This document shows, piece by piece, positions 579-6,016 of a stretch of DNA of 13,034 nt. Positions within the stretch are counted from its first letter, which is position 1. Each line of letters begins with the position of its first letter. The stretch is from the IMG/VR virus record IMGVR_UViG_2654587571_000008, positions 1 through 13,034 of that record; one strand, written 5' to 3'. Source of the DNA: a virus. Taxonomy: Duplodnaviria; Heunggongvirae; Uroviricota; Caudoviricetes. The translations under genes were made by a program, and so were the position numbers. The notes below the pieces were generated by a model. It searched no databases. It had not been told where the DNA came from and saw nothing but the letters and a program-made list of their open reading frames with translations.

Positions 579-836
579 TTAATGGTTAGTTCTCTCTGCA
601 TCTATTTTACGAATATCAGCTTTATCCCGATTGCAGTTAGCCAGCGCAGACAACAGACTCACATTCAGCTCCAGACTGGCACCATACGTCAGCGGATTAG
701 GTATAAACGGTACAGGAGTATCAGAAGTCAGGCTGGGTGGCAGTGGTGCCACCGGAACGCTCACGTAAACTGTCCGCGTACTTCCGCAACCGGTCAGCAG
801 CGGCAGCAGGCACAGCACGTGAAGCACAATCATCAT
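579..836 (-). CDS. Rz1: Rz1-like outer-membrane spanin lipoprotein (o-spanin), overlapping and extending beyond Rz
   Basis: Alternative frame inside the Rz gene. Begins MMIVLHVLCLLPLLTGC (signal peptide plus LLTGC lipobox) followed by a proline-rich region (VPVAPLPPSLTSDTPVPFIPNP). Confidence 0.55.
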   Translation of the reverse strand: MMIVLHVLCLLPLLTGCGSTRTVYVSVPVAPLPPSLTSDTPVPFIPNPLTYGASLELNVSLLSALANCNRDKADIRKIDAERTNH

Positions 837-1113: not shown

Positions 1114-1573
1114 TTACCACCCCACCAGCCTCTTTAAATCGGGCAATCAGGTCACCGATTTTATGTTCATACTGACCGTAACCTGCACCGGGTAATGAAG
1201 CCCATATATTGCTGCAACGGTCGATTGCCTGACGAATATCGCCGCTATCAATCATAGGTAAAGCGCCACGCTCTTTAATCTGCTGCAATGCCACTGCGTC
1301 CTGGCTTTTGGGGGAGAAGTCTTTCAAACCAAGCTGTTTACGGTAAGCATCCCACCAACGGGAAAGAAGCTGGTAACGTCCGGCGGCTGTTGATTTGAGT
1401 TTGGAGTTTAGCTTGACAAGTTTGCGAGGGTGATCGGAGTAATCAGTGAACAGTTCGCCACCAACAATAACATCATAACCGTGGTTACGTGTCGGTTGTC
1501 GCCCGTTATCCGTTCCTTCTGACCATGCCACCATATCAAGGAAAGCTTTACGCTGGGAATTTAGTACCTGCAT
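1097..1573 (-). CDS. Endolysin, lambda R-type (lytic transglycosylase, phage lysozyme family)
   Basis: 158 aa. N-terminus QRKAFLDMVAWSEGTDNGRQPTRNHGYDVIVGG and the rest match the recalled lambda R sequence almost residue for residue. Confidence 0.9.
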   Translation of the reverse strand: MQVLNSQRKAFLDMVAWSEGTDNGRQPTRNHGYDVIVGGELFTDYSDHPRKLVKLNSKLKSTAAGRYQLLSRWWDAYRKQLGLKDFSPKSQDAVALQQIKERGALPMIDSGDIRQAIDRCSNIWASLPGAGYGQYEHKIGDLIARFKEAGGVVNEVEL

Positions 1574-1576
1574 AAA

Positions 1577-1912
1577 TTACTCCTTAGAGCCACCAAACTT
1601 GTTACCGATTACTCGCATTGCAGCCCCACGAATAGCATCGACACCGATCAGCCCCACGCCACCACCAATGGCAACAGAAAGCGATTTAGGCCATCCGACA
1701 TACTCAAGAGCGGATGCAAAGGTCAGCGTCAGAGCGCCACAGAGCAAAATCTCGAGCGTTTTTCGCTTCCAGCCACCACCACCGCCAAAATAGGCGATGC
1801 GCAAACCAGCCATAACGATCGACATAATCACTGCACCCAGCGGTGTGTCTCCACGCCACCAGCTCTGAAACAACTCCAGCCAGTCCGGCCAGGTATTTGG
1901 GTTATGAGGCAT
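1577..1912 (-). CDS. Holin, lambda S-like (three predicted transmembrane segments)
   Basis: Start chosen at the internal ATG (1912..1910), preceded by GAGGTGAGAG. Three hydrophobic segments and a charged C-terminus, with AGLRIAYFGGGGG and LIGVDAIRGAAMRVI resembling lambda S. Stop is 3 nt before the endolysin start. Confidence 0.6.
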   Translation of the reverse strand: MPHNPNTWPDWLELFQSWWRGDTPLGAVIMSIVMAGLRIAYFGGGGGWKRKTLEILLCGALTLTFASALEYVGWPKSLSVAIGGGVGLIGVDAIRGAAMRVIGNKFGGSKE

Positions 1913-1955
1913 TTCGTCATCTCTCACCTCGCGATATTTGCGGGTGCTGTGTTGG

Positions 1956-1981
1956 AAATAAAAAGGCCACGCAACGTGGCC
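1956..1981 (-). terminator. Intrinsic terminator between the methyltransferase gene and the lysis cassette
   Basis: Perfect 7-bp GC-rich stem GGCCACG/CGTGGCC (1965..1971 and 1975..1981) with a 3-nt loop, followed on the minus-strand RNA by UUUUUAUUU. Confidence 0.6.
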
Positions 1982-1988
1982 ACCAGAA

Positions 1989-3044
1989 TTATTTCCCCAC
2001 CACCAGTTCACTTACCTCTTTCACCGTCTGATTAAACCGCTCTGTCTCAAGCTCAACACCTAACGCCCGACGCCCCAGCGCCATTGCTGCTTTTATTGTG
2101 GAACCGGATCCCATAAAGAAATCAGCAACCAGATCGCCGGGTCGACTACTGGCATTGATTATTTGCCTGAGCATATCCGCCGGTTTCTCACACGGATGTT
2201 TACCCGGGTAGAACTGAACGGGTTTATGCATCCAGACATCGGTATAAGGCACGGAGACTGATACGGAGAAATAGCGCCGGAGAGATTTAAACTCATCCAG
2301 CAATTCAGAATATTTGCGATTCAGTGAATCATAAGATGCCACCAACTGGTGGTGTGGTTGTTCCAGTTGTTGTTCCTGAAACTTCTCTGCCGCTATACGG
2401 GAAAACAGTGCCTGTAACTTCCGGTAGTCAGCCTCATTCGGCAACTGCCACTGACTGGCACCAAACCAGTGGGAAACCATATTTTTCTTACCTGTGGCTT
2501 CGGCAATTTGTTTTGCCGTTATACCCAGTTCGGCACGAGCATCCCTGAAATACGATATCAGCGGTGCCATTATGTGCTGTTTGAGTTCCCTTTCTTTTGC
2601 CGCATAGCCGTCACTTTTGCCGCGATATGGCCCCTGGTAATGTTCAGCAAACAGAACGCGCTCTGTGGCAGGAAAATATGCGCGCAGACTTTCTTTATTA
2701 CACCCATTCCAACGTCCGGACGGCTTCGCCCAGATGATATGGTTAAGCACGTTGAAACGTTCACGCATCATGATCTCAATATCAGATGCCAGGCGATGCC
2801 CACAGAACAGGTAAAGGCTTCCGGCAGGTTTCAACACCCGCCAGAACTGGGCCAGACAGTGGTCCAGCCACTTAAGGTAATCTTCGTCCCCTTTCCACTG
2901 ATTGTCCCAACCGTTGGGTTTCACCTTGAAGTACGGCGGATCGGTAACAATCAGGTCAATGGAATCATCAGGCAGGGACTGAATAAAATGCAGGCAATCA
3001 GCGTTGATTAAATCAACACTGTTTGTTTTTACAGTATTTTTCAT
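1989..3044 (-). CDS. DNA methyltransferase, N6/N4 family (beta-class, orphan)
   Basis: 351 aa with N-terminal motif IV (IVTDPPYF) and C-terminal motif I (DFFMGSGST). No adjacent restriction endonuclease. Confidence 0.85.
   Translation of the reverse strand: MKNTVKTNSVDLINADCLHFIQSLPDDSIDLIVTDPPYFKVKPNGWDNQWKGDEDYLKWLDHCLAQFWRVLKPAGSLYLFCGHRLASDIEIMMRERFNVLNHIIWAKPSGRWNGCNKESLRAYFPATERVLFAEHYQGPYRGKSDGYAAKERELKQHIMAPLISYFRDARAELGITAKQIAEATGKKNMVSHWFGASQWQLPNEADYRKLQALFSRIAAEKFQEQQLEQPHHQLVASYDSLNRKYSELLDEFKSLRRYFSVSVSVPYTDVWMHKPVQFYPGKHPCEKPADMLRQIINASSRPGDLVADFFMGSGSTIKAAMALGRRALGVELETERFNQTVKEVSELVVGK
3017..3036. promoter_or_regulatory. SOS-box-like palindrome (CTGT-N8-ACAG) overlapping codons 3-9 of the methyltransferase
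   Basis: cACTGTttgtttttACAGTA read directly; compare the recalled LexA consensus TACTGTATATATATACAGTA. It is the only CTGT-N8-ACAG site I found in the window. Confidence 0.3.
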
Positions 3045-3193
3045 GGATCAGTAAGCGTAACTCTGGTAGGCTCACTCTGCTTTTGCGCTAAAGCAGTGGG
3101 CCATGGTTCGCTTGTGACCAGTAAGCATGAGCGAATGGCTGGCAGGTGCTACCAACACCCACCAGCCGCCCATTTTCACAAATTAAAAGCCCT

Positions 3194-3388
3194 TCATTGC
3201 TGAAGGCGTCTGTAACAGCCGAACTGGTAATCTGCCAGCCCCGCCATAACCAGCTGGGTCAGTATTAACTGACAGCGTTCGCGTGAAAGGTATGTGTTTT
3301 GTGCAATCTCCCCGACTGTTGCCGGTTCGATGCTTAATTCATTAAAAACAACTTTCGCCGTTTCTGTCATATCTTGCTGTTTTAGCAT
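3194..3388 (-). CDS. Small (64 aa) putative winged-helix/HTH protein
   Basis: Start placed at the ATG at 3388 with AAGGGA about 8 nt upstream (the track ORF begins at 3412). ATVGEIAQNTYLSRERCQLILTQLVMAG looks like a helix-turn-helix. Confidence 0.4.
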   Translation of the reverse strand: MLKQQDMTETAKVVFNELSIEPATVGEIAQNTYLSRERCQLILTQLVMAGLADYQFGCYRRLQQ

Positions 3389-3509
3389 GTCTTTTTCCCT
3401 TCTGGTTAACATGACATACCAATAACTCTTGTCTAAAAAGCCAGCAAGATAAACAGTCAGTATTCACGACCACCAGCGTGTTTACCGTACTGCACCAATG
3501 TTTAATTTA

Positions 3510-3532
3510 TAAAAAAACCGCGAGAACGCGGT
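3510..3532 (-). terminator. Intrinsic terminator downstream of the 176-aa cargo gene
   Basis: 6-bp stem ACCGCG/CGCGGT (3517..3522 and 3527..3532) with a 4-nt loop. The plus-strand A7 run (3510..3516) gives a U7 tract after the hairpin on the minus-strand RNA. Confidence 0.6.
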
Positions 3533-3569
3533 AAGTATTGTTAAAAAACCAACAGTAATTTCACTCAAC

Positions 3570-4100
3570 TTATTTAATACATTCTTTTGCTTGCGCATAA
3601 TAAATTTTATGAGTATTAGCAAGCTTAACGAAGTTATACTTAACTGCCCCTAACAGGGTTCCAACTCTTGTATGCCCTTCCATTAAATGGAGCCCTGTTG
3701 TATTACTTTTCAGCAAAGCTCGATCTATAAAAAATGGTGGTTCGCACCATGTGCCAAAATTACACCAATGCGCTTTTATTTCATCATCCATAAATACATC
3801 ACCTTTACGGGTCATGTAATCTTCAACGACCTCATGCAAAAAATCAGGGCAAGTAGCATTATCCCCGATAGTTAAAAAGTTTTTAGTGGGAAGTTCAATC
3901 AATTTCCATTCAATTTGGTCAATATCAAGATCCCCATAAAGCTTCTGAAATCTGTCATCACCTACCAATCCATAATAAATCTCCTGAATTACAGGAGAGG
4001 GGGCAATGATAGAATATTGCTCACGAAGTATTCTTTCAGCCTCAGGAGCTTCAAATATGGTTCTTTCTGAGAAAATAGGCAGAAGATCTCGGTATAACAT
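3570..4100 (-). CDS. Hypothetical protein (176 aa), AT-rich cargo gene between Q and the lysis genes
   Basis: Long ORF in locally AT-rich DNA, with a GGGGAT Shine-Dalgarno upstream of the ATG and a strong terminator downstream. No family recognised. Confidence 0.5.
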   Translation of the reverse strand: MLYRDLLPIFSERTIFEAPEAERILREQYSIIAPSPVIQEIYYGLVGDDRFQKLYGDLDIDQIEWKLIELPTKNFLTIGDNATCPDFLHEVVEDYMTRKGDVFMDDEIKAHWCNFGTWCEPPFFIDRALLKSNTTGLHLMEGHTRVGTLLGAVKYNFVKLANTHKIYYAQAKECIK

Positions 4101-4132
4101 CCATATCCCCGTGTAAGAAAAAATAATTTAAC

Positions 4133-4152
4133 CCGCTCGGCTGCGGTTTTTT
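4133..4152. terminator. Short GC hairpin with flanking A and T tracts (candidate tR-prime, possibly bidirectional)
   Basis: CCGC tcggct GCGG followed by TTTTTT on the plus strand and preceded by an A-rich run. On the minus strand it sits about 40-55 nt downstream of the predicted late promoter. Confidence 0.35.
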
Positions 4153-4194
4153 GGACTTATCAACGGTAGACACACAAAGCCCATCGTTGAGAAA

Positions 4195-4223
4195 ATCTTA
4201 TCCATGTTTTTTGAAAAATGCAA
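4195..4223 (-). promoter_or_regulatory. Candidate late promoter (PR-prime-like) immediately downstream of the Q gene
   Basis: Minus strand reads TTGCAT, 17-nt spacer, TAAGAT (complement of 4218..4223 and 4195..4200), in the 154-bp gap between Q and the first late gene. Confidence 0.35.
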
Positions 4224-4254
4224 GCATCATGTCGCTATCTTTGTTGAAAATCAT

Positions 4255-5007
4255 TTATCTTGTCACTTTTCTCAATTGCGCTTCAGCATATGCTTCTTCC
4301 TGCCAGCACTTTGTAACCAGTTTATCAATGACGTCTGCATATCCTTTGTACCACTGATAATCCGTCAGGTCTGTTACCAGATTCTGGACATGACGTCGTG
4401 CCAGTGTGGTTGGTAAACGGCTAAATCGGTTTCCATTGCAACGCCCACAAATCTTATAAACAGGCGTGCCATGAAGCCGGGTTCTTTTTTCATCCAGGAC
4501 AATACCTTTACCCTTACATCCTCTGCACGCTGTGCTGACTTCTCCCTTACCATGACAATGCTGACATAGTTCCTTCACCCACTCTTCCTTGATAACAGAT
4601 TCCCCGTTTCTGGAGTGTTTCACCACTTCGCGCAATACATTATGAAATCCAGTACCAGCACAATGCTCACAGCGAGCCTTACTTGCCGCAGATCTGGAAT
4701 AATCAGCAAAGGCAAAATTCACAAGGTAAGGAATGATCTGTAGCCGGGTTTCTTCACTCAATTTGTTCAATGTCGGGTTATCCAGTGCCATCGCGTAATT
4801 GAGCAGACCTTCAATCGCAAACTGAGGATCCTGAACACCAACTTTTGCCAGGAATAAGGCAAAACCCAGTGGTGCTTTCGACTGCACCATCCCCTGCGCA
4901 GCCATCACATCTGTAATTGTTAAACCACCCGAGCCTGTCGCCGGTGCGTCATCACTCAATTTTGGAGATTTTGGGGAGTAATATTTTGGTAAGGCTTCAA
5001 GGTTCAT
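4255..5007 (-). CDS. Q-like late antiterminator with four CxxCxGxG zinc-finger motifs
   Basis: 250 aa with CEHCAGTG, CQHCHGKG, CRGCKGKG and CGRCNGNR. Sits directly upstream of the late promoter/terminator region. Good GGAGAA Shine-Dalgarno. Length agrees with the long Q-like proteins of E. coli prophages (recalled). Confidence 0.55.
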   Translation of the reverse strand: MNLEALPKYYSPKSPKLSDDAPATGSGGLTITDVMAAQGMVQSKAPLGFALFLAKVGVQDPQFAIEGLLNYAMALDNPTLNKLSEETRLQIIPYLVNFAFADYSRSAASKARCEHCAGTGFHNVLREVVKHSRNGESVIKEEWVKELCQHCHGKGEVSTACRGCKGKGIVLDEKRTRLHGTPVYKICGRCNGNRFSRLPTTLARRHVQNLVTDLTDYQWYKGYADVIDKLVTKCWQEEAYAEAQLRKVTR

Positions 5008-5020
5008 GCTCGTTCTCCAC

Positions 5021-6016
5021 TTACGCCAGTACGCCTATTGCCAGCGCACGATCGATAAAACGAAATATCAGCTCCAACTGGGAGCCATACATCTCTTCAA
5101 ATGCCACGGTATCCGCATGCAGCTCGTCGTGATGCTTTCTGCACAAAGGCAACACAAAGAGGTCATGCGCTTTTGTACCCATTCCCCCCTGACCGTGGCC
5201 TATCAGGTGGTGGGGATCATCAGCAAGCTTTCCACAACATGCACACGGCTGTGTCTTAACCCAGCGCGTGTACTTTTCATTAACCCAGCGGCGACGTTTT
5301 GGGCGTAACATAAAAGACTCCGGCGACTCCGGATCCACTTTCAGCGCCAGCACCTTTTTCGCTTTATCCTGGATAATGCTGGTGGCAGGAACCGAAGGCA
5401 CAAGGTCACTTTCCCGGGTGACAGACGGCACAACAGGCTTCGGTAATCTCAGTGCCTTACGGGCTGCACTTTCCGGTAAGGCATCCGCCAGGTCATTACG
5501 AATCAGCCACCAGCACAGTTCCGGCATTGTCACAACGTGACTGTCATCAAAACCGAGATCCCGACGCACAACAGACAACACCCAACGGGCACAGTTATCC
5601 GTTGCCATTGATTCCAGCCGTTCCGTGAACTGATCGCGCAGCTGGTTATCGCAGTGCCAGCAGAGACGGATTGCGCCCGGAGCGTGCCGCATTGTGGTCA
5701 TGTTCTCGCTGTGCCAGTCGGAATGAGGCCACTGGCAGCCTTTTTCACGAAGTAACCAGCTTTCAAGACATTCCACCCCACCAGCACGACGGATCACTGC
5801 CTCATTGCGGAACACGGCCCGAACGGCAGGATCATCCGCCAGCGGTTGTGATGCCGCGGGAACGGCACCACTGGCGAAAGATGAATAACGTTCCGGCTCA
5901 GGCTCCAGCAGGACACGCCCCTGCATAAACAGGGGCATCAGCTCTGAACCGGGCCTGAACAATACGATCCCCATACGCGGGGCAATTTCAGGGGTCAGTA
6001 GTGCTCTCACAGTCAC
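5021..6016 (-). CDS. DUF968-like prophage protein with a C-terminal Cys/His cluster (HNH-like)
   Basis: 331 aa. C-terminus PCACCGK...DPHH...GGMGTKAHDL...PLCRKHHDELH. Nin-region position between KilA-N and Q. Family assignment is from memory. Confidence 0.5.
   Translation of the reverse strand: MTVRALLTPEIAPRMGIVLFRPGSELMPLFMQGRVLLEPEPERYSSFASGAVPAASQPLADDPAVRAVFRNEAVIRRAGGVECLESWLLREKGCQWPHSDWHSENMTTMRHAPGAIRLCWHCDNQLRDQFTERLESMATDNCARWVLSVVRRDLGFDDSHVVTMPELCWWLIRNDLADALPESAARKALRLPKPVVPSVTRESDLVPSVPATSIIQDKAKKVLALKVDPESPESFMLRPKRRRWVNEKYTRWVKTQPCACCGKLADDPHHLIGHGQGGMGTKAHDLFVLPLCRKHHDELHADTVAFEEMYGSQLELIFRFIDRALAIGVLA

Follow-up and report, generated by a model that had tools for sequence, protein, structure and literature searches.

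A putative Q-controlled late transcription unit of the lambda type with a damaged first terminator in an Escherichia coli prophage

The 13,034-nt stretch of viral DNA analysed here (hereafter the window) is a lambdoid prophage of E. coli, and its late region is ~97% identical to that of phage SfV. The prophage could have defects elsewhere. On the minus strand, the Q antiterminator gene is followed by a late promoter, the remains of a first terminator, a low-GC cargo gene with its own terminator, a small winged-helix-like ORF, a DNA methyltransferase gene, another terminator and the lysis genes S, R, Rz and Rz1 (Table 1). The functions given to all of these late-region elements are deduced from sequence. 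The small ORF has weak DprA_WH and TrmB matches and lies directly after the first terminator, tR', in SfV and most relatives; the endolysin gave no match in Pfam. A scan of the entire window against Rfam gave no match.

Table 1. Positions of genes and regulatory elements in the late region of the window
Feature	Coordinates	Strand	Evidence or sequence
Q antiterminator, 250 aa	4255..5007	-	Pfam PF03589, PDB 7UBM, phrog_127
Predicted late promoter pR'	4195..4223	-	gapless alignment to lambda pR'
pR' -35, TTGCAT	4223-4218	-	
pR' 17-bp spacer, candidate Q-binding element	4217-4201	-	
pR' -10, TAAGAT	4200-4195	-	
Predicted start (4188) and sigma-dependent pause element AACGAT (4188-4183), then GGG	4180..4188	-	lambda identity
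Decayed tR' copy: A-run, 4-bp stem, broken T tail	4118..4152	-	alignment to SfV/Ayreon, fold energy
Cargo gene, 176 aa, low GC	3570..4100	-	
First strong intrinsic terminator past pR', 3' end of cargo cassette	3511..3532	-	ACCGCG-TTCT-CGCGGT then T7
Winged-helix-like small ORF, 72 aa	3194..3412	-	phrog_331, E = 5e-35
N6/N4 DNA methyltransferase, 351 aa	1989..3044	-	PF01555, E = 3.5e-42; PADLOC MTase_II, E = 3.5e-152
Second strong intrinsic terminator	1956..1981	-	GGCCACG-TTG-CGTGGCC then TTTTTATTT
Holin S, 111 aa	1577..1912	-	PF05106, E = 2.6e-27; SfV homologue annotated S
Endolysin R, 158 aa	1097..1573	-	homologue of annotated SfV gene R
Spanin Rz, 130 aa	721..1113	-	DUF2570, E = 2e-5; SfV annotates Rz and Rz1
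Embedded Rz1 lipoprotein ORF, MMIVLHVLCLLPLLTGC...	about 579-836	-	SfV annotation

The Q protein belongs to Pfam PF03589 (E = 1.6e-53) and phrog_127 (E = 4e-108) and matches the lambda Q structure (PDB 7UBM; E = 3.3e-37) over residues 1-120 and 160-250, which comprise N-terminal, zinc-ribbon and C-terminal segments. The N-terminal segment aligns well with its lambda counterpart, the part of lambda Q that builds the torus (PMC9388147). The DNA-contacting arm differs from that of lambda, and the protein has an extra CxxCxGxG zinc-finger pair that matches DnaJ_CXXCXGXG (E = 3e-7). A Q21-type Q was considered because Stx2c phages match, but the Pfam and PDB placements put the protein in the lambda-Q family.

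The late promoter is found 32-60 nt past the Q stop codon, and aligns without gaps to lambda pR' (TTGCAT-17-TAAGAT-TTTCTC-AACGATGGG in the window; TTGACT-17-TAAATT-TGACTC-AACGATGGG in lambda). The start/pause element CTCAACGATGGG is identical in the two phages and stands at the same 6-bp distance from the -10 element. The combination TAAGAT-N6-AACGATGGG occurs a single time in the window and in none of 200 shuffled sequences. The spacer, TTTTCAAAAAACATGGA, has the 17-bp length of lambda and is kept in all relatives; it shares 11 of its 17 bases with lambda, as counted by eye, and differs at the other 6, and is the candidate Q-binding element. We take AACGAT to correspond to positions +1..+6 (Ring, Yarnell and Roberts 1996). 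As pR' agrees with the consensus at 7 of 12 positions and our promoter scan lists sites with at least 9 of 12, it is absent from the scan list. The role of the sigma-dependent pause element and the pause at +16/+17 have been described (PMC9191641, PMC9388147), and lambda pR' is constitutively active (PMC7547250). The initial annotation had proposed a Q gene, a sigma70-like promoter just after it at 4195..4223 of the minus strand and a start near 4188. Q stands, by its family and structure matches and its place directly upstream of a pR' homologue; the promoter is present and collinear with lambda pR', its activity being predicted, and the start predicted from the lambda alignment agrees exactly with the proposed one.

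This module appears to be widespread. More than 119 IMG/VR viral contigs contain the exact pR' pattern, and the promoter block is invariant across the 41 distinct leaders found in them. The segment from the 3' end of Q through pR' has matches in 987 E. coli records, extending to at least about +17/+20 in 30 sampled records, and a lambda-family Q gene precedes pR' in about 990 E. coli genomes. One of the matching strains, E. coli PS1Thumoskin9, has 100% identity and carries the window allele.

Farther along the unit, the two strong terminators that had been placed ahead of the lysis cassette (3510..3532 and 1956..1981) are confirmed by scan, fold z and conservation. Both have the canonical form of an intrinsic terminator, i.e. 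a GC-rich stem of at least 5 bp with an immediate U-run, and both are intergenic, immediately past stop codons and conserved in relatives. The upstream one consists of ACCGCGTTCTCGCGGT (3532-3517; 6 pairs, 5 of them GC; fold z = -2.6) and T7, and is also found in the allele of the WW2 type. The downstream one, GGCCACGTTGCGTGGCC (1981-1965; 7 pairs) followed by T5AT3, is the top-ranked scan site in the window, with a fold of -22.6 kcal/mol (z = -3.5) that none of 200 shuffles equalled. It begins 8 nt past the methyltransferase stop and ends 44 nt ahead of the holin start; the SfV and Ayreon records annotate its homologue, and it was found in all relatives with the methyltransferase-holin arrangement.

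The promoter-proximal hairpin is of a different quality. Relatives possess a tR' composed of ACCCGC-N6-GCGGGT and 5-7 T, and this canonical form is located at +38 to +66 in about 110 of 120 related contigs. In the window, an A-run (4152-4147) is followed by a 4-bp stem, CCGC/GCGG (4146-4133), with a dG of -5.2 kcal/mol, compared with -8 kcal/mol for the core stem of relatives and -11 to -16 when flanking A/U pairs are included. The tail (4132-4118; GUUAAAUUAUUUUUU) reads G-TT-AAA-TTA-T6, with the broken T-run GTTAAATTATTTTTT and the T6 at 4123-4118. Here the stem and tail fall short of the canonical form, and the scan lists nothing at 4152-4118. Its proximity-weighted T score of 1.4 falls well short of the 4.6-5.1 reached at working sites. 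The d-scores, whose constants were combined with modern energy parameters so that only their ranking is reliable, place this hairpin (-55) far below the tR' of Qin (+15) and SfV (+23) and the window terminators at 3532-3511 (+22) and 1981-1956 (+30). We used stem energy and the T score as discriminators in place of the built-in terminator scan, which lists the broken site of the WW2 type yet misses the canonical SfV tR' because pairing between A-run and T-run uses up the tail. The 90-nt leader folds no better than its shuffles (z = -0.21), and we make no claim of a structured RNA. Of the hairpin with T-tract annotated initially at 4133..4152, the hairpin is thus present, while the T-rich tail falls outside that interval, and with its weak 4-bp stem and interrupted tail the site is not a good terminator.

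The origin of this damage is visible in the alignments. Homology with SfV and Ayreon stops after GCGGGTT, inside the T-run, and that with SfV resumes just past the cargo terminator, which places the 5' junction of the cargo cassette at ~4130/4129. The T-run of the window tR' was therefore lost because the cassette was inserted inside it; one pair of the stem is lost as well in the window allele. The broken T-run is common to all 90 cargo-carrying E. coli genomes, and the full 5-GC stem is retained in 76 of them. In this commoner allele, of the WW2 type, the intact stem is followed by UUAAAUUAUUUUUU and the scan calls the site terminator-like; the old site may therefore still stop part of the transcripts, especially with NusA. 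The cassette is made up of the cargo gene and its own terminator and has a GC content of 0.369. Only 30 nt separate the junction from the cargo ATG, and the scan finds no promoter-like site in them; the cassette thus combines two features of a moron, own terminator and low GC, with no own promoter found, and we do not class it as one. The idea that the cargo genes are insulated does not hold, since no canonical terminator separates this gene from pR', the first strong one being located past its end. Profile searches of the cargo protein against Pfam, NCBIfam, PADLOC and PDB gave no match; it may have a ParB/sulfiredoxin-like fold, for which the hints are weak.

Homologues of the cargo gene occur in several other arrangements. 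In Citrobacter and Enterobacter they lie behind an intact tR', which rules out that the cargo is always confined to the interval between pR' and tR'; by ancestry the cargo thus belongs to the late genes, and selection may have had no part in the loss of tR' in the window, which may be neutral. A Salmonella locus of the cargo family has a weakened tR' stem, a gene of this family lies between Q and pR' in Hafnia, and one metagenome remnant with such a gene has lost the leader hairpin, but also Q. There are hints in this distribution that the family has escaped tR' control in several lineages and that lysogenic expression was selected.

The relatives also bear on the RNA expected from pR'. In K-12, a Term-seq 3' end at 1642356(-) falls inside the T-run of the Qin tR', 67 nt from the homologous start, and is direct evidence that a promoter of this family is active in the lysogen and that its transcripts end at the Qin tR'. 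A search of the Cappable-seq and ROSE supplements for a mapped 5' end of this K-12 Qin homologue gave none, and a literature search on quuQ/ydfT returned nothing useful. A terminated leader of 40-55 nt, as initially annotated, is unsupported: leaders of relatives measure about 62-67 nt, and the first hairpin is a poor terminator that, even if it acts, would be expected to yield an RNA of about 58-71 nt. For the window allele a terminated short leader is doubtful because tR' is decayed, and a Q-free product of roughly 680 nt, a cargo mRNA ending at 3511, seems more likely.

Taken together, homology supports a Q-controlled late transcription unit in the window, and the proposal that lysis depends on antitermination by Q is well supported by the association of Q, a pR' homologue and a pause element with two strong terminators before the holin gene. 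We suggest that sigma-70 RNA polymerase would start at ~4188 from pR' and pause at the -10-like AACGAT/GGG element, where Q, once made and bound at the promoter spacer, would load onto it. The Q-modified enzyme would then pass the terminators at 3532-3511 and 1981-1956 and transcribe the winged-helix ORF, the methyltransferase gene and S-R-Rz/Rz1, genes for lysis that polymerase would not reach without Q. Judging from the junctions, the foreign low-GC cassette inserted into the T-run of tR' and would have crippled the normal first terminator (about +38 to +66). With tR' crippled, a substantial share of pR' transcripts made without Q would probably continue through the cargo gene and stop at 3511-3517, the fraction ended at the decayed site being predicted from stem and tail, and the terminator of the cassette probably acts now as the effective tR'. 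We regard this combination, a lambda-type Q-dependent unit with a crippled tR' and substantial Q-free read-through into the cargo, as the probable explanation of the locus.

A different outcome at the first hairpin has an appreciable but clearly smaller chance of being correct, namely that the hairpin and T-rich tail at 4152-4118 still stop most transcripts made without Q, so that a short leader is produced and cargo and lysis genes alike depend on Q. By its position the site is homologous to a functional terminator of K-12 Qin, its distal U6 run persists, most cargo-carrying E. coli genomes keep the 5-GC stem in the allele that the scan calls terminator-like, and the Citrobacter and Enterobacter homologues sit behind an intact tR'. 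However, the stem of the window allele is reduced to 4 bp and its site is missing from the scan list, the G-UU-AAA-UUA ahead of the U6 brings the T score far below that of working sites, and the RNA would be longer than the 40-55 nt first proposed. The same hairpin (4146-4133), its 9-nt spacer GUUAAAUUA and the U6 run could also be read as a non-standard terminator or attenuator acting on Q-modified polymerase. Their geometry resembles a hypothetical class of sites on which the lambda Q structure paper speculated, since Q extends the RNA-exit channel (PMC9388147). We consider this extremely improbable, as the insertion scar fully accounts for the arrangement, the stem is very weak, no terminator of this class has been demonstrated, and stopping Q-loaded polymerase at this point would block lysis.

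It is also very unlikely that the strong terminators are ordinary gene ends and that the cargo, methyltransferase and lysis genes have promoters of their own, leaving lysis independent of Q. Morons frequently possess own promoters (PMC3851460), and the consensus scan is insensitive enough to have missed pR' itself; with that sensitivity, it finds no minus-strand promoter-like site of at least 9/12 between 4195 and 1577, where the holin gene ends. The DNA available for such promoters is short, both before the cargo ATG and in the 44 nt ahead of the holin start, and the conserved module of Q, pR' and pause element accompanies lysis cassettes in hundreds of genomes.

If Q-free read-through into the cargo takes place as we suggest, the insertion may have moved the first effective terminator from ~+65 to ~+680, so that the lysogen would express the cargo gene from the always-on promoter and still keep its lysis genes shut off; we put this forward tentatively and think it somewhat less likely to be true than not. 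Were it true, the constitutive late promoter would transcribe a late gene in the lysogen, which would offer prophage cargo a simple way of becoming expressed in the host. What is new here is modest: a gene that inserts at the tR' hot spot can abolish the first terminator, and its own terminator may then take over. Moreover, the annotation of pR', pause element and terminators can be carried over to some 1,000 E. coli prophages; Stx2c phages are among them, and in these exactly this promoter and terminator control toxin output.

The late switch is otherwise of the ordinary, textbook lambda kind, and the damaged first terminator is its sole unusual detail. The order in lambda is Q, pR', sigma-dependent pause element, tR', 6S RNA and then S-R-Rz, and the window shares with it the Q family, the spacing of promoter and start/pause element and the presence of terminator(s) ahead of the holin-endolysin-spanin cassette. 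Apart from the features of Q and of the spacer given above, the window differs in its decayed first terminator, in the three genes between pR' and S, and in the leader of its family, which is about 65 nt, whereas that of lambda is about 194 nt. SfV, mEp460, Ayreon and cdtI have ~97% DNA identity to the window over Q, pR', the winged-helix ORF, the methyltransferase gene, the terminator and the lysis genes, and terminators behind both Q and the methyltransferase gene are already marked in the public records of these phages. This type of system is therefore known and annotated in near relatives, and the variation is minor. For instance, SfV has an intact tR' (AACCCGCcgctgaGCGGGT then T7) and lacks the 176-aa gene, while Ayreon has an intact tR' followed by another cassette, composed of a gene for a 141-aa lipoprotein and a terminator.

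The Qin prophage of K-12 possesses a homologous Q (ydfT/quuQ, 250 aa), pR' (TTGCAT...TAAAAT...AACGATGGG) and tR'; for Qin, the 3' end mapped by Term-seq speaks for a terminated leader of 67 nt. In contrast to the window, Qin is a cryptic prophage with an intact tR', in which the short leader is followed by cspB and the lysis genes and the cargo is a set of cold-shock genes. Stx phages likewise have a constitutive late promoter that is terminated just downstream in lysogens and cargo genes between tR' and the lysis genes. This very pR'/tR' allele is present in Stx2c phages, whereas the StxS small RNA belongs to another type of Q and leader, and is 258 nt long and processed to 74 nt. The cassette resembles the morons of phage SfIV in being foreign and low in GC, in having a terminator of its own and in lying between Q and the holin gene, but it has no own promoter and is placed directly on the pR' leader.

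The relevant genes of the window all lie on the minus strand and together form the late region of a lambdoid prophage. This is a further case of a known system whose close relatives are already annotated. Shigella phage SfV is about 97% identical to the stretch 1500-5100, and mEp460, Ayreon, cdtI and Stx2c-converting phages are 91-97% identical to it. In the GenBank records of SfV and Ayreon, rho-independent terminators are already marked behind Q and behind the methyltransferase, and the Ayreon record marks a third behind that phage's own cargo gene.

Features of the late region, in order of transcription
Feature	Position	Strand	Remarks
KilA-N gene		minus	first in late-region gene order
DUF968/HNH gene		minus	between KilA-N gene and Q
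Q antiterminator gene	4255-5007	minus	stop codon 4257-4255
pR' (late promoter) with start/pause block	4223-4180	minus	3' of Q stop codon; TTGCAT 4223-4218, 17 bp, TAAGAT 4200-4195, TTTCTC, AACGATGGG 4188-4180
Cargo gene (176-aa ORF)	3570-4100	minus
Terminator	3532-3511	minus	ACCGCGTTCTCGCGGT then T7; 38 nt past cargo stop codon
72-aa winged-helix-like ORF	3194-3412	minus
N6/N4 DNA methyltransferase	1989-3044	minus
Terminator	1981-1956	minus	GGCCACGTTGCGTGGCC then TTTTTATTT; 8 nt past methyltransferase stop, 44 nt before holin start
Holin S	1577-1912	minus
Endolysin	1097-1573	minus
Rz/Rz1		minus	last in order, after endolysin

The Q protein is a member of the lambda-Q family by Pfam (PF03589, E = 1.6e-53) and by its match to the lambda Q structure (7UBM, E = 3.3e-37), and the Q21 and Q82 types are ruled out by the family definitions in PMC9388147. 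Four CxxC motifs are found at about residues 113-200 (CEHCAGTG, CQHCHGKG, CRGCKGKG and CGRCNGNR) and resemble a DnaJ-type two-zinc module. In lambda Q there is one zinc ribbon, which forms the arm touching positions 11-13 of the binding site, and by comparison the window's Q carries an insertion of about 40 residues.

The promoter pR' has the same spacings as the lambda late promoter (TTGACT, 17 bp, TAAATT, TGACTC, AACGATGGG) and shares with it an identical 12-nt block, CTCAACGATGGG; we take AACGAT to be +1 to +6. Transcription of the lambda late region starts in this block, which also contains the sigma-dependent pause element at which Q is loaded (PMC9388147, PMC9191641). The window has a single TAAGAT-N6-AACGATGGG, and 0 of 200 shuffles have one; exact copies of the 44-nt promoter pattern were found in more than 119 IMG/VR contigs, and the Q 3' end with the promoter is matched in 987 E. 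coli records, the common block reaching at least about +17/+20 in the 30 records sampled. By this homology, the promoter that the initial annotation placed after Q, with a predicted start near 4188, is well supported; it is missing from the promoter scan because only 7 of 12 consensus positions match.

Several smaller observations concern the promoter. One IMG/VR contig (L054, promoter at about 2841-2965) carries a natural hybrid joined exactly at the shared CAACGATGGG, with -35, spacer and -10 from the window's promoter family and the leader from lambda, which suggests that the pause element is a recombination joint between Q-promoter and leader-terminator modules. A 5' leader hairpin is predicted at 4162-4188 (minus strand, +1 to +27; AACG/CGTT and UGGGC/GUCUA pairing), and the lambda leader can form similar AACGA/UCGUU pairing; conservation alone is no proof of this hairpin, since its 5' arm doubles as the pause element. 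On the plus strand, a promoter-like site at 4167-4196 (TAGACA-18-GAAAAT, upstream TG) overlaps pR' antisense and is directed into Q; it also occurs in SfV and WW2, and scores at chance level.

Among 120 loci with the window-type promoter, all oriented on the predicted start, about 110 possess a canonical tR', the first terminator after pR', at +38 to +66: an A-run, ACCCGC-loop-GCGGGT, then 5-7 T. The energy of its core stem is about -8 kcal/mol, falling to between -11 and -16 once the flanking A/U pairs are counted; the loop is variable, and one locus (L025) has a wholly different yet paired stem. In the window only CCGC/GCGG is left (4146-4133, -5.2 kcal/mol), followed by the tail G-TT-AAA-TTA-TTTTTT. 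The built-in terminator scan does not discriminate among the sites compared here. By a rough d-score (d'Aubenton-Carafa formula and constants, to be trusted for ranking only), the window's first hairpin scores -55 and the WW2-type one, from the commoner E. coli allele, -26, while the tR' sites of K-12 Qin, Ayreon and SfV score +15, +21 and +23, and the window terminators 3532-3511 and 1981-1956 score +22 and +30. The hairpin reported near 4133-4152 is present, but is a decayed terminator with a 4-bp stem, a broken T-tail and the lowest of these scores. Near-identical ACCCGC-N6-GCGGGT hairpins with a T-run were also seen in L130 (3451-3468), Hafnia alvei L127 (5427-5443) and SfV (L002, about 2455-2480). 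This terminator closes the late leader behind both lambda-type and Q82-type (PF06323) Q genes; the promoters of the two prophage groups are unrelated.

The alignment of SfV and Ayreon with the window stops right past GCGGGTT and restarts at GGTGCAGTACGGTAAACACGC, just beyond the cargo terminator, and the intervening ~640 bp, with a GC content of 0.37 against 0.46-0.49 in the neighbours, hold the cargo gene and its own terminator. The cassette was thus inserted inside the tR' T-run. The junction is the same in 90 of 90 complete E. coli genomes carrying the cargo gene; in 76 of them the 5-GC stem is still complete (WW2 type), and in about four it has decayed further, as in the window.

The cassette contributes only 30 nt upstream of the cargo ATG, and the promoter scan found no promoter-like site in them; transcription of the cargo gene must therefore come from pR'. 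Since tR' is crippled, polymerase lacking Q would probably pass it, transcribe the cargo gene and stop at 3511-3517, giving an RNA of ~680 nt; we see an even chance that such read-through is substantial. The proposed 40-55-nt leader is unlikely, and even the intact family leader measures ~62-67 nt. The initial annotation, largely correct in observation and textbook in interpretation, hence needs one correction: its first terminator is a scar, and the cargo gene would be carried on a constitutive leader.

Two strong terminators would still have to be passed before the holin. Those claimed at 3510-3532 and 1956-1981 rank sixth and first among the 31 sites of the window scan (14.2 ± 3.7 expected) and fold far better than shuffles (z = -2.6 and z = -3.5, respectively); the second is kept in every relative with the methyltransferase-lysis arrangement. 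Moreover, no minus-strand promoter-like site of at least 9/12 consensus, a threshold above pR' itself, was found between 4195 and 1577. For these two reasons the proposed dependence of lysis on Q antitermination stands as the best-supported reading, and the core model of Q, pR', pause element and terminator barrier is, judged from sequence, very probably right. Three further weak, terminator-like minus-strand hairpins were also noted, at 3998-3980 (in the cargo ORF), 3206-3191 (spanning the 72-aa ORF's stop codon) and 1892-1876 (inside the holin ORF); the last two recur in relatives, with quality near chance level.

Searches of Pfam, NCBIfam and PADLOC found no match for the cargo protein, which is placed in a PHROG of unknown function. 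Its homologues form only 14 clusters, all those with a named source being from Enterobacterales, and dN/dS is 0.37 between the window and WW2 alleles. In four other genera, homologues of 47-58% identity likewise directly follow Q, which there is of the Q82 type. A strong tR' stands in front of the homologue in Citrobacter and Enterobacter, the tR' stem is weakened in Salmonella, the Hafnia homologue has Q on one side and a pR'/tR' copy on the other, and a metagenome remnant has lost both Q and the leader hairpin. These arrangements indicate that the ancestral place of the gene was that of first late gene after tR', and that it has escaped from tR' several times; the escape may be selected or neutral. 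In the Hafnia alvei prophage (L127-L129, 3297-5450), the interval from a Q82-type Q to a pR'-like promoter with tR' holds the homologue together with a 197-aa gene on the reverse strand; here the homologue appears to be upstream, not downstream, of the late promoter. The cargo protein also shows weak similarity to the ParB/sulfiredoxin fold and contains an EGHTR motif that is invariant, and its gene lies near the PF01555 DNA methyltransferase gene. PF01555 domains often occur in fusion with ParB-like ones; any functional connection between the cargo protein and the methyltransferase is pure speculation.

Other cassettes occupy the same hot spot: a 141-aa lipoprotein with terminator (Ayreon type), cold-shock genes with terminator (Qin type), 111-aa and 128-aa ORFs with terminators, and a 146-aa plus 429-aa gene pair, whose insertion destroyed the tR' 3' arm in seven contigs. 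In general, late regions of this phage group are built from a promoter-proximal terminator, cargo units each closed by a terminator, and then the lysis genes, a layout that fits the moron concept (PMC3851460) and the Stx-phage arrangement (PMC7547250). A second lineage has thereby lost tR' (IMG/VR loci L017, L048, L059, L068, L082, L088 and L101): GTAGGT replaces GCGGGT in the 3' arm, and the gene pair, of unknown function, is flanked by pR' and by the next terminator, immediately ahead of the holin.

The promoter and hairpin of the window's family are shared by the E. coli K-12 Qin prophage (ydfT/quuQ). An "orphan" RNA 3' end at 1642356(-), found in two sample sets of a curated Term-seq table (Adams et al. 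2021), falls in the T-run of its tR', at a distance of 67 nt from the homologous start. This is experimental evidence for firing of the promoter family in a lysogen and for termination of its transcripts at tR'; in lambda, too, pR' is constitutive (PMC7547250). The Qin late leader (MG1655 1642356-1642422(-); L124 6357-6423) seems to be a ~67-nt RNA that lacks annotation, and StxS, the analogous leader of Stx phages, is a regulatory small RNA.
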